From Escherichia coli (lineage in GTDB: Bacteria > Pseudomonadota > Gammaproteobacteria > Enterobacterales > Enterobacteriaceae), in the NCBI RefSeq assembly GCF_045037415.1, contig NZ_CP173438.1: a stretch of 64,000 nt of DNA; one strand, written 5' to 3'. The stretch's first letter is position 1. Every line of letters starts with the position of its first letter. Position numbers: made by a program. Shown here one piece after another: positions 10,201 to 25,200 of this stretch.

Positions 10201-13200
10201 TTCAGCTCCCGGTAACTCAACTGCCACTCGCCGTCGATCACCGCGATGCTGTCACTCGCAGCGTGGCGAGTCAGAATGTCGGTCAGTGGCAAATCCTGCC
10301 AGTAGCCTTTTTCCCGATAGCGACGGGCAAACTCTTCCGGCCATCGGGTGAATGGAATGCTCATCCTCGCTCCTTAATGCAATCCAAAAACGTTCAACAT
10401 GGTAGAAAGTTTGACGCCTGTTTCGCGCCACTCACCCAACGGTGAGGACGCAGGCACAATCCCCGCTCCGGCAAACAGACGCACCTGATTTTCCCGCAGC
10501 TTCGCGCAGCGGATGGTCACCACCCATTCACCGTTACCTTCGCTGTCACACCAACCCACAATGCCGCCAAACAGTTCGCGGTCGAACGGCTCCAGTTCAG
10601 CAATAACCTGAGTCGCGGCCAGATGCGGGAAACCGCTCAGCGCAGGAGTTGGATGCAGCAGACAGGCCAGAGTCAGTGCGTTTTCTTGCGAATTCGCTTT
10701 ACCTTCAAAGGGAGTTGCGAGATGCCACAGCGTCGGCGTGGTAATCAATTGTGGAGAGGAGGGAACGTGTAACTCACTACTGCGTTCGCGCAGTACCTCT
10801 TTCATCGCCTGAGTCACCAGTTCATGTTCATGGCGATCTTTTTCTGACGCCAGCAGACGATTACCCGCTTCGCGATCGAGCACTTCATCTGGCTGACGAC
10901 GCGCGGAACCGGCTAACGGAATGGAGCTAAAACGCTCGCCGTCTTTACGTAGCAGCAGTTCCGGGCTGGCCCCCAGCAGAACGCCACCATCAGCCAACGG
11001 AACATGGAAGTTGTAACTAACCGGGTTTTGCGCAATCAACCGTTCCAGCAATACGCCACTATCAATGGCGGCGTCAGTGGTGATATCAATCAACCGTGAC
11101 AACACCACTTTGTCGACCTGCGGCGTGGCGGTAAGTGCGGCAGCACGGGCAACCATCTGTTCAAACGTGGTTTGTTCCGGAATGGCCTGACGTTCCACCA
11201 CGTTCAGCGACTGGCTGCGGGTGAAACGGCGTGCGGAAGCTTGTTTTTCCTGACGGGAGAACGACTGCCAGGATTCGGGAATATACAGCGACGAAGGCTG
11301 ACGTGGATCGAAGGGAATCGCCCCGACCATCACCGGATTTTTGATGCCCTGCGCTTTGGCATCGGCAAACAGCGCGGCGAGTTTTTGCTGGAAGGGACTG
11401 TCGGGTGAATCCCCGTTCACAGCGGGTTCATCGAAGCGGGCGAAACATCCTGACGTCGTAAAACTGCGGTACGGCGACATAAAGAAAAAGCGATTGGGCG
11501 CAAGTGTTGCCATGGTCTGCTGTACTTCCTCAGCCAGTGACGTATCCATATCATCCTCCACAAAATGATAAAGGCTTTAATAATGATTATCATTTATATT
11601 TTCGGTCGCTAACCTAAAAGCAAACGCGCACTATGTCAACTCTTGAGGTAACGCAATCTGCAACTCGGGGTTGCATCTGGTTGTGGTTACAATGAAAATG
11701 AGAAGCATTAACTTCATTAATAACAGGAAGCTGATTTGTGAGACTCGCCTCGCTCTACCGCAACGCCCTTCTATTAACAGGACTTTTGCTTTCAGGAATA
11801 GCCGCAGTTCAGGCCGCCGACTGGCCGCGTCAGATTACTGACAGCCGTGGCACTCATACCCTGGAAAGCCAGCCGCAGCGTATTGTATCCACCAGCGTCA
11901 CCCTGACTGGCTCACTGCTGGCGATTGATGCTCCGGTGATCGCCAGCGGCGCGACCACACCAAATAACCGCGTAGCGGATGACCAGGGCTTTTTACGCCA
12001 GTGGAGCAAGGTGGCGAAAGAACGCAAACTGCAACGGCTCTATATCGGCGAACCGAGTGCAGAAGCCGTTGCCGCGCAAATGCCGGATCTGATTTTAATT
12101 AGCGCAACCGGCGGCGATTCGGCGCTGGCGCTGTACGATCAGCTTTCTACCATCGCCCCAACATTAATCATCAATTACGACGACAAAAGCTGGCAGTCGC
12201 TGTTAACGCAGCTTGGCGAAATTACCGGGCATGAGAAACAAGCGGCAGAGCGGATTGCACTGTTTGATAAGCAACTGGCAGCGGCGAAAGAGCAAATCAA
12301 ATTACCGCCGCAGCCGGTCACTGCCCTTGTCTATACCGCCGCTGCACACAGTGCCAATCTCTGGACGCCGGAATCAGCACAAGGGCAGATGCTGGAACAA
12401 CTCGGCTTTACGCTGGCGAAGTTGCCCGCAGGCTTAAACGCCAGCCAAAGCCAGGGCAAACGCCATGACATCATTCAGCTTGGTGGAGAAAATCTGGCTG
12501 CAGGGTTAAATGGCGAGTCACTATTCCTGTTCGCCGGTGATCAGAAAGACGCCGATGCTATTTATGCTAATCCGCTGCTCGCGCACCTGCCTGCAGTACA
12601 AAACAAGCAGGTTTATGCGCTGGGAACCGAGACATTCCGCCTGGATTACTACAGCGCCATGCAAGTGCTGGAACGACTTAAGGCGCTGTTTTAAGCATTA
12701 ATTGTCGGACGCTGTCACCTGCGGCGGCGTCTGGCGAAAACGCCGCAACTCCACCAGCACCAGCAACAACAACACGCCGATAATCAACAAACCAAAACCG
12801 CTCGCGCTTGCGGAAGCAACCGGTGTCATCATCGCTCCCAGACCGCCTAACAGCGCCGCACCTATGGCATCGCCCGTCACGTTTTGCGCCGTCCACAAAC
12901 CGTTAATCCGCCCTAACATCGCTTCCGGGGTTTGCGTTTGCAGCATTGTATATTGCAGCAACGAACTAACCGCGCTCAGCCAGCCGAACAGTGCCAGACA
13001 AACCACGCCTAAAATCCACATCGGCATCAGGCCAAACAGACCAATGGCGAGGAACGCCCCCAATGTGGAGAGCAACATCAACAGACCTGGCCGTACGCTA
13101 TGCGCCAGTTTTCCACTGGTTAACGCGCCAATAGCCGCACCGAGCGGGATTGCCGCATAGAGAAAGCCAATTTGCGCCGCCGACATCTGCCAGTTGTCAG

Positions 13201-22200: not shown

Positions 22201-25200
22201 TGTGACTGCGGCTGACACACAACGTCCCAGCCTGCCGGTAAGGCGCATTGTTGCGGCCACAGACTGAATTGCCCCTGCGCATTGCGCAAAATGTAAAACG
22301 CTCCCTGTGGATCATCGAAGGGATTACTGAATGCCATATTCAACTCCTGTCATGGAAAAGTGGTTGCCAGAGGTCGATTAGCCCCTGCATCAAGCCACCG
22401 CGCCAACAAAGCGCATCATGTCCGCCGTCAACCTGACGCCAGAAAATGGATTCTTTTAGGGGGTGTAATTGCGCATACAGCGCCTGATTGGCCTGCATGA
22501 TCATCGGCTCGCGAACACCCGCTTCCAGCACAATGCGCAGACCTTCGGCGCTAACTTCACCAGTTTTTAGCTGTTCAAGTAACATGCCCTCTTGGTGCCC
22601 GCCCCGATGCGGCCACCAGTACGAACCTGACTGGCTTAATACACAGCCAAAGCGTTCAGGCCAGTGCAGTCCGGCATACAGCGCGGAAAGCCCACCAAAA
22701 CTCTGTCCGGCGACCACGGTGCGATCGGCGCGATCGCTAAAAGGGGCAATAGCTTTCACCTGGGGTAATAACTCTTGCTGTACTGCCAGCCAGAAATCCG
22801 CATTACACGGCAGTTCGTGGGCGCGGTGCGTGGTGTCGATAGCGTCGATCAACACATACACGGCGGGCGGAAGTTGCCGACGATGGGTCAGCGAAGTCAG
22901 CGCAGGCCAGACGGGCATACTCTGCGCCCAAAATTCGCCATCAAGCAAAACTGCCAGCGGGCGTTCTTCTGCTGTTGCATCGCCGATGGTAAAAATCCAT
23001 ACACGGCGTGAATTTTTCAACCGTTCACTTTTCCAGATAATTTCTTTGGCAGGCGTTTCTGGCGCTTGCGGACAATCCCATCCCGGTTGCAGAGGCGCTT
23101 GCGGCATTTCGAGTGCAGAAACAGCGTGCCCTCGCCCGCCTTTCCAGCTTTGTGGATTCAGCGGATCGGCTATCGCCTGGGGTAATAGTTTTCGCCAGCC
23201 TTCGCGTAATTCGAGGCGATCGGGGGATGGTGCAGAAAAAATGTCATCGCGTTCGGTAGGAATAAAGCAGTAGCTGCCGCGCCAGTTGGCATTGAGTTGT
23301 GTCGTCCACTGCCAAACATCGGTTCCTGCAATTCGCTGCATCGACCGGGGCTGGCTGTTCTGATGGTGATCGGTCATGCCAGTGATATAGACCCATACGC
23401 GCTTTATCGCCGAGTGGCCTTCAGAACCTTGTGGATCACGCCACCAAAAAGTGACTTCAAACATTTCGTCATTCAGACGTTGCCATTCCGGGCCATGTTT
23501 CGACTGCCACCAGCTCTCACTTCCTACTTTTAACGCCGTCACACCATAACCCCATGTTTACTGTGCAATTTTTTATTGATTGCAGAAATATATTGATAAT
23601 ATTATTGATAACTATTTGCATTTGCAATAGCGTAATGGCGCGCCGTGGGAAGCGCGGACATTAATTAATCAGCTGCACTGCGTGTCTTTCAGGATCAAAG
23701 GTTTTCGCGGTAGCGGGATGCGTCGTGTTGATGACGACCATGCCCGACAGTTGCAATTCGTGGCAAAAATGCAGGAATAAAACAATGAACAAGAAGATTC
23801 ATTCCCTGGCCTTGTTGGTCAATCTGGGGATTTATGGGGTAGCACAGGCACAAGAGCCGACCGATACTCCTGTTTCACATGACGATACTATTGTTGTTAC
23901 CGCCGCCGAGCAGAACTTGCAGGCGCCCGGCGTTTCGACCATTACCGCAGATGAAATCCGCAAAAACCCGGTTGCCCGCGATGTATCGGAGATCATTCGT
24001 ACCATGCCTGGCGTTAACCTGACCGGTAATTCCACCAGTGGTCAGCGTGGTAATAACCGCCAGATTGATATTCGCGGCATGGGTCCGGAAAACACGCTGA
24101 TTTTGATTGACGGCAAGCCGGTAAGCAGCCGTAACTCTGTGCGTCAGGGCTGGCGTGGCGAGCGCGATACCCGTGGTGATACCTCCTGGGTGCCGCCTGA
24201 AATGATTGAACGTATTGAAGTTCTACGTGGTCCGGCAGCTGCGCGTTATGGCAACGGCGCGGCGGGCGGCGTGGTTAACATCATTACCAAAAAAGGCAGC
24301 GGTGAGTGGCACGGCTCCTGGGATGCTTATTTCAATGCGCCAGAACATAAAGAGGAAGGTGCCACCAAACGCACCAACTTCAGCCTGACCGGTCCGCTGG
24401 GCGACGAATTCAGCTTCCGCTTGTATGGCAACCTCGACAAAACCCAGGCTGACGCGTGGGATATCAACCAGGGCCATCAGTCCGCGCGTGCCGGAACGTA
24501 TGCCACGACGTTACCAGCCGGGCGCGAAGGGGTGATCAATAAAGATATTAACGGCGTGGTGCGCTGGGACTTCGCGCCTCTGCAATCACTCGAACTGGAA
24601 GCGGGCTACAGCCGCCAGGGTAACCTGTATGCGGGTGATACGCAGAACACCAACTCTGACGCTTACACTCGCTCGAAATATGGCGATGAAACCAACCGCC
24701 TGTATCGCCAGAACTACTCGCTGACCTGGAACGGCGGCTGGGATAACGGCGTGACCACCAGCAACTGGGTGCAGTACGAACACACCCGTAACTCGCGTAT
24801 TCCGGAAGGTCTGGCGGGCGGTACCGAAGGGAAATTTAACGAAAAAGCGGCACAGGATTTTGTCGATATCGATCTTGATGACGTGATGCTGCACAGCGAA
24901 GTTAACCTGCCGATTGATTTCCTCGTAAACCAAACGCTGACGCTGGGTACAGAGTGGAATCAGCAACGGATGAAGGACTTGAGTTCCAACACCCAGGCAC
25001 TCACCGGAACGAATACCGGCGGTGCTATTGATGGTGTGAGTGCCACCGACCGTAGCCCATATTCAAAAGCAGAAATTTTCTCGCTGTTTGCCGAAAACAA
25101 TATGGAGCTGACTGACAGCACCATCGTAACGCCGGGGCTGCGTTTCGATCATCACAGTATTGTCGGCAATAACTGGAGCCCGGCGCTGAACATATCGCAA

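Follow-up and report, generated by a model that had tools for sequence, protein, structure and literature searches.

We analysed the enterobactin locus in a stretch of 64,000 nucleotides from Escherichia coli (contig NZ_CP173438.1 of assembly GCF_045037415.1; the whole stretch is called the window below), where the complete locus occupies positions 6721-26859 between cstA and the ybdK side, in the K-12 order and orientation. From cstA onward the genes run as entH, entA, entB, entE and entC, diverging from fepB; entS, diverging from fepD, fepG and fepC; fepE; and entF, ybdZ and fes, diverging from fepA and entD. The same series is found in the annotation of an identical genome (offset 501) and in those of K-12 BW25113 and MG1655, the MG1655 counterpart being b0583-b0597 with its three Fur-controlled bidirectional regions. 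A megablast search of the segment 6500-27000 against 5,426 complete E. coli genomes recovered at least 80% of these 20.5 kb in one place in 5411 of them, with 100% identity to strains Esc2 and AVS0343 and about 96% identity to K-12 derivatives. The locus is thus the standard intact E. coli enterobactin cluster, a textbook system that is already known, and we consider it next to certain that it constitutes the canonical enterobactin system of 16 genes in six transcription units running outward from three bidirectional Fur control regions. The genes are listed below with their lengths in amino acids (aa), their best NCBIfam (NF accessions) or Pfam matches and their aa identity to K-12.

6721-7134, minus strand: entH, proofreading thioesterase, 137 aa; equivalog NF007607, 315 bits; 100% identity; annotated in the identical genome
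7137-7883, minus strand: entA, 2,3-dihydro-2,3-dihydroxybenzoate dehydrogenase, 248 aa; NF006074, 442 bits; 98.8%
7883-8740, minus strand: entB, isochorismatase / aryl carrier protein, 285 aa; Pfam Isochorismatase and PP-binding; 99.6%
8754-10364, minus strand: entE, 2,3-dihydroxybenzoate-AMP ligase, 536 aa; NF008192, 1033 bits; 99.3%
10374-11549, minus strand: entC, isochorismate synthase, 391 aa, with its ATG at 11549 and not a GTG at 11561; NF011591, 861 bits; 99.7%
11738-12694, plus strand: fepB, periplasmic ferric-enterobactin binding protein, 318 aa, GTG start; NF008200, 518 bits; 98.7%
12698-13948, minus strand: entS, enterobactin exporter of the major facilitator superfamily, 416 aa; NF007792, 714 bits; 98.6%
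14059-15063, plus strand: fepD, ATP-binding cassette (ABC) transporter permease, 334 aa; NF007760, 627 bits; 98.8%
15060-16052, plus strand: fepG, ABC transporter permease, 330 aa; NF007759, 648 bits
16049-16864, plus strand: fepC, ABC transporter ATPase, 271 aa; NF007606, 612 bits, the model beginning at residue 107 of the mechanical open reading frame (ORF)
16861-17994, minus strand: fepE, that is wzz(fepE), O-antigen chain-length regulator, 377 aa; NF007699, 620 bits; 95.5%
18241-22122, minus strand: entF, serine-activating nonribosomal peptide synthetase (NRPS) with condensation, adenylation, peptidyl carrier and thioesterase (C-A-PCP-TE) domains, 1293 aa; NF007605, 2808 bits; 97.0%
22119-22337, minus strand: ybdZ, MbtH-like protein, 72 aa; Pfam MbtH, 77 bits
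22340-23542, minus strand: fes, enterochelin esterase, 400 aa, GTG start; NF007758, 702 bits; 94.8%
23785-26025, plus strand: fepA, TonB-dependent ferric-enterobactin receptor, 746 aa; NF010048, 1281 bits; 99.1%
26200-26859, plus strand: entD, phosphopantetheinyl transferase, 219 aa (206 in K-12); NF007604, 392 bits; Pfam 4PPT_N and ACPS

Translation from the annotated starts gave no internal stop in any of the 16 genes. Fifteen of the 16 proteins have exactly the K-12 length, with 94.8-100% aa identity, EntD being the exception, and NCBIfam equivalog or family models match above their curated cut-offs for 14 genes, that is, for all but EntB and YbdZ; in EntF, the Pfam domains Condensation, AMP-binding, PP-binding and Thioesterase are all present. 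Hence the biosynthesis set (entC, entE, entB, entA, entH, entF, entD and ybdZ) is intact, as is the set for export, uptake and release (entS, fepA, fepB, fepD, fepG, fepC and fes), whose members have K-12 lengths and 94.8-99.1% aa identity to K-12. FepE resides in the cluster but is not an iron-transport component, and its gene is low in G+C (0.43 over 17001-18000). The initial annotation had described intact ORFs with tight or overlapping junctions in the expected enterobactin organisation, and both descriptions are borne out: alignment to K-12 shows no difference in the set of 16 genes, their order, their orientation or their overlapping junctions, and the overlaps measure 1 nt for entA/entB and 4 nt each for fepD/fepG, fepG/fepC and ybdZ/entF. 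The convergent pair fepC/fepE overlaps by 4 nt as well. On the other hand, the same annotation had placed the complete locus at 11562-23784. All the parts that it described do exist, but this span is incomplete, as it holds only fepB, entS, fepD, fepG, fepC, fepE, entF, ybdZ, fes and the three divergent gaps, leaving entCEBAH outside on the left (6721-11549) and fepA and entD outside on the right (23785-26859). Its start at 11562 arose because a mechanical ORF of entC beginning with GTG had been used. The real ATG lies at 11549, where the NF011591 model, which begins at residue 5 of the 395-aa ORF, and the annotation of the identical genome agree, and therefore the entC/fepB gap extends over 11550-11737.

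We also weighed the possibility that a cryptic inactivating change has left the locus in place but decayed, so that no enterobactin would be made or used. In its favour, the last ~50 codons of entD are unlike those of K-12 and the protein has 13 aa more, and fepB lacks a leader element of K-12 together with part of the footprinted operator edge. However, all 16 ORFs are open and full length, and EntD scores 392 bits against an equivalog cut-off of 169, is aligned over residues 1-206, and in its K-12-conserved part retains the segments IGIDIE and FSAKESAFKA, which we take to be transferase motifs. Moreover, 630 complete genomes have the same entD allele and ~2,700 the short fepB leader, unlike what would be seen with a recent lesion. 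Decay is therefore very improbable, and the intact cluster stands as our reading.

To score candidate Fur operators we used a 19-bp, strand-symmetrised weight matrix built from 13 K-12 Fur sites that lie outside the ent locus, which guards against circularity. These sites (fhuA, fur, gpmA, fiu, tonB, yoeA, cir, exbB, ryhB, sodA, fecA, fecI and fhuF) have the coordinates given in Tables 3 and 4 of Chen et al. 2007 (PMC2189734), a paper that also tabulates the DNase I-footprinted Fur regions of K-12 and discusses the dhbA Fur site of Bacillus subtilis. Their sequences were taken from NC_000913.3, registered to the classical box, and score 12.3-23.8 bits on their own matrix. When the 64 kb were scanned, the four best matches were 14022-14040 (19.3 bits), 11694-11712 (18.6 bits), 14028-14046 (18.4 bits) and 11579-11597 (18.3 bits); all four fall within the entS/fepD or the entC/fepB gap and inside the score range of the training sites. 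A search with the classical consensus GATAATGATAATCATTATC allowing at most 3 mismatches returned a single match in the window, 14028-14046, where 100 shuffles gave an expectation of 0. Since a matrix made from unrelated Fur sites returns the ent operators on top, these operators can serve as a useful positive control for Fur scans in this window. The control regions and the putative Fur sites in them, given without strand, are as follows.

11550-11737: entC/fepB divergent control region, 188 bp (374 bp in K-12), delimited by alignment to K-12
11573-11603: entC-proximal Fur cluster of three overlapping 19-mers, from the matrix scan
11694-11712: fepB-proximal Fur box GAAAATGAGAAGCATTAAC, 18.6 bits, 15/19 to the consensus
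13949-14058: entS/fepD divergent control region, 110 bp, 152/152 identical to K-12 including flanks
14022-14046: two overlapping Fur boxes 6 bp apart, 19.3 and 18.4 bits, of which 14028-14046 is 16/19 to the consensus
23543-23784: fes/fepA divergent control region, 242 bp, 280/283 identical to K-12 including flanks
23589-23625: array of four Fur-box-like 19-mers in 6-bp phase, from the matrix scan

For each gap, the single-site maximum and the score of a 6-bp-phased cluster were compared with 2000 shuffles keeping the region's own dinucleotide content, and the K-12 footprints were mapped onto the window via NC_000913.3 (offset +777). In the entC/fepB gap, the entC-side 19-mers start at 11573, 11579 and 11585, 6 bp apart, with 13.3, 18.3 and 13.5 bits, and are enclosed by the equivalent of the K-12 entC footprint (11555-11603), which is identical at 49/49 positions; on the fepB side, a TACAAT hexamer at 11688 stands just before the box. 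The single-site maximum of this gap was reached by 4/2000 shuffles, and that of the entS/fepD gap by 2/2000, the K-12 fepD-entS footprint equivalent (14009-14077) being identical at 69/69 positions. The four 19-mers of the fes/fepA gap, at 23589, 23595, 23601 and 23607, score 7.4, 9.4, 12.0 and 11.2 bits and coincide with a K-12 fepA-fes footprint equivalent (23587-23634) that is identical at 48/48 positions; K-12 has the same array of individually weak boxes (7-12 bits). The phased-cluster score was reached by 0/2000 shuffles in all three gaps alike. For fes/fepA, it is this phased array, together with the identity to the K-12 footprint, that carries the significance. These results uphold the Fur-box-like sequences that the initial annotation had placed in the three divergent gaps, the matrix matches being significant in every one of them.

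As controls we took the seven gaps cstA/entH, fepA/entD, ybdL/hcxA, ybdD/cstA, two in the accessory island described below, and fepE/entF, six of which were unremarkable and the last borderline (24/2000). We give practically no credence to the idea that the matches are a by-product of AT-rich promoter DNA without specific meaning, and reject it on the shuffles and the control gaps: although the three divergent gaps are AT-rich (0.57-0.70), the AT-rich fepE/entF control gap also carries weak phased matches (10 bits) and the best single site of fes/fepA is modest at 12 bits, dinucleotide-preserving shuffles never reached the phased-cluster scores, control gaps of similar AT content (cstA/entH, 0.65; ybdL/hcxA, 0.63) reach at most 4.3 bits, the sites match the positions of the published DNase I footprints of K-12 exactly, and two of the three gaps are more conserved across some 5,400 genomes than the flanking coding DNA. 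Specific Fur operators thus remain our reading of these gaps. Identity of at least 99% is seen for the entS/fepD gap in 5278 of 5416 genomes (97%) and for the entC/fepB gap in 4818 of 5416 (89%), while the 20.5-kb locus as a whole reaches at least 99% identity in only 565 of 5478 matching records (10%). As these two operators vary less than the coding DNA around them, the pattern points to purifying selection on them. Conservation of the fes/fepA gap is less extreme: it was found in 5414 of the 5426 genomes and is at least 99% identical in 1188. Compared with the operators of the classical Fur regulon, those in the entS/fepD and entC/fepB gaps have 15-16 of 19 consensus matches and 18-19 bits, and their 6-bp-spaced clusters resemble the footprinted Fur regions described previously, with no substantial difference (Chen et al. 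2007, PMC2189734).

Several points weigh against Fur control of the locus as proposed here. The training sites were set by the best consensus match within 15 bp of the published centres, which biases the matrix to the consensus, though not to the ent locus. The single-site maximum of the fes/fepA gap (12.0 bits) was reached by 63/2000 shuffles, and about 1.6 such matches occur per shuffled 64 kb. Promoter-like hexamers overlap the boxes at 11565-11593 (both strands), 14020-14048 and 23576-23605, but a generic sigma-70 scan of 11400-24000 found 13 promoter-like sites against 9.6 +/- 3.2 expected, which is not above chance; the promoter positions are therefore those of the K-12 literature. The operator edge and leader of fepB differ from K-12, so control of fepB may differ quantitatively. 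Fur binding and repression in this strain are predictions from the sequence. In the same interval, 11400-24000, no Rfam family reached its gathering score, and a relaxed beta_tmRNA match (22 bits, with 84 needed) is due to chance.

EntC, EntB and EntA make 2,3-dihydroxybenzoate (DHB), from which a tri-serine lactone is built by EntE and EntF together with the aryl carrier domain of EntB. Priming of the carrier domains is the task of EntD, while YbdZ acts as a helper and EntH as the proofreading enzyme. EntS exports enterobactin, the TonB-dependent FepA, FepB and FepDGC import the ferric complex, and Fes frees the iron. Established knowledge of the K-12 pathway, the family matches and the near-identity to K-12 suggest the same functions for the genes in the window. 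According to this scheme, the entCEBAH unit would serve DHB production and loading; the fes-ybdZ-entF unit would encode the esterase, the MbtH-like helper and the serine-activating NRPS, with fepE downstream; the fepA-entD unit would supply the outer-membrane receptor and the phosphopantetheinyl transferase; fepB would provide the binding protein of the periplasm and fepDGC the ABC importer of the inner membrane, and entS would be responsible for export. In iron-replete cells, the divergent promoters would be blocked by dimers of Fe2+-Fur on overlapping 19-bp boxes in 6-bp arrays, and when iron is scarce Fur would depart, so that all six units would be derepressed together. We infer the assignment of genes to these units from the tight junctions, the Fur-free entH/cstA and fepA/entD gaps and the K-12 literature. 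In the matrix scan, Fur-like sites are absent from the cstA/entH gap (maximum 4.3 bits) and from the fepA/entD gap (maximum 0.4 bits), which fits entCEBAH and fepA-entD each being expressed from one regulated promoter. The practical value of these results lies in annotation, namely, of a strain with a full, apparently functional, Fur-controlled enterobactin system.

Other catecholate siderophore clusters include ent/fep of Salmonella and dhb of Bacillus subtilis. The locus shares their logic of an isochorismate-to-DHB pathway with NRPS assembly and Fur boxes at the promoters; it is the E. coli form, not a variant of either. In strain AVS0343 (NZ_CP124517.1), which is otherwise identical to the window here, the locus matches in three pieces over 23.8 kb instead of 20.5 kb, and a transposase of the IS66-like insertion sequence ISEc23 is annotated under the match, so that strain has an insertion within or beside the ent cluster; the window is without this insertion.

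The main departure from K-12 within a control region lies in the fepB leader. The first 161 bp and the last 22 bp of the entC/fepB gap are identical to K-12, between which K-12 has 191 bp and the window only ACTTC at 11711-11715. These 191 bp form an imperfect palindrome in the K-12 fepB leader (NC_000913.3, about 624533-624723). The K-12 fepB footprint corresponds to 11688-11718, but the window shares only the first 23 of its 31 nt (11688-11710), the insert of K-12 starting at 11711, 8 bp inside the footprint. The core box is hardly altered, with 18.6 bits here versus 19.6 in K-12 and 15/19 consensus positions in both. For segments that reach from an assumed RNA start directly behind the TACAAT hexamer to the 30th nt of fepB, the predicted fold is about -100 kcal/mol for the 254-nt K-12 segment and -10 kcal/mol for the 68-nt equivalent in the window. 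The insert is carried by 2725 of the 5426 complete genomes, the rest being without it like the window, so its presence or absence is a common polymorphism and not a lesion.

As for the nature of the insert, it includes the hairpin/G-quadruplex (HPGQ) motif no. 17 of Kaplan et al. 2016 (PMC5100583). It belongs to no Rfam family, as only generic miRNA-precursor hairpin models match it, far below threshold, and the 64-kb window holds no further copy of it. It may resemble the Box C/RSA-type repeats; a literature search for a name of the insert among bacterial interspersed mosaic elements (BIME), enterobacterial repetitive intergenic consensus (ERIC) sequences, box C and RSA returned nothing usable. 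Read by eye, the K-12 insert is flanked by TTA on both sides, which may be a target-site duplication. It is conceivable, though we think it unlikely, that FepB is expressed in two different regimes depending on this polymorphism, which would act on the stability or the translation of the mRNA or on how far Fur occupies the operator. If so, the supply of the binding protein would be uncoupled from the rest of the regulon in half of E. coli. Among the items reported here, this polymorphism is the only one with potential for a small new experiment.

The other main departure concerns the 3' end of entD. EntD has 219 aa versus 206 in K-12, with 84% aa identity, and the homology of entD to K-12 stops at ~26700 (about codon 167), the last ~50 codons (26700-26859) being a diverged allele that, together with the adjoining transketolase gene, is common to 630 of the 5426 genomes. 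An accessory island had been said to abut entD, and it does, at 26861-37809. Since K-12 homology ends inside entD, however, the boundary of the island lies within the gene and not after it, which fixes the left boundary of the island inside the entD 3' end. IS186, which lies downstream of entD in K-12, is replaced here by this 10.9-kb island for sugar utilisation. Its genes encode a two-subunit (split) transketolase, a sugar-binding regulator and an FGGY kinase, together with a ribose-type ABC transporter accompanied by a DUF2291 protein, and two short-chain dehydrogenase/reductase (SDR) oxidoreductases. The island is followed by two tandem copies of hokE and then ybdK. An isolated Fur-like match of 13.6 bits at 33786-33804 lies inside the gene for the sugar ABC transporter ATPase of the island, and is probably due to chance, since about 1.6 matches of at least 12 bits are expected per 64 kb.

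A second Fur-like feature away from the ent locus is found at 790-814, inside ybdN and upstream of ybdM, where two matches stand 6 bp apart (GGACATGATAATCATTTTT, 15.3 bits, and another of 11.1 bits). This pair includes the fifth-best matrix match in the window, and ybdN and ybdM are unmentioned in Chen et al. 2007 (PMC2189734). In the fepA/entD gap, positions 26100-26141 match the Rfam small RNA model ES036 (CssrF) with 42.2 bits (gathering score 37.6). The match lies between two copies of palindromes resembling repetitive extragenic palindromes (REP) or BIME, with GCCGGATGCGGCG... upstream and AGGCCTGATAAGCG... at and after its 3' end, and K-12 has these palindromes too; the match is probably related to these REP/BIME-like repeats rather than a distinct gene. 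The fepE/entF gap (17995-18240) has 246 bp versus 215 bp in K-12 and is essentially unalignable to it except for a hairpin and T-run 3' of entF. This hairpin, CCATAATC...GATTATGG at 18176-18200, and the T-run that follows it on the minus strand appear to be the terminator of entF. The weak 6-bp-phased Fur-like matches of this gap, at 18165 and 18171 (8-10 bits), overlap the entF-side hairpin, whose AT-rich palindrome probably gives rise to them.

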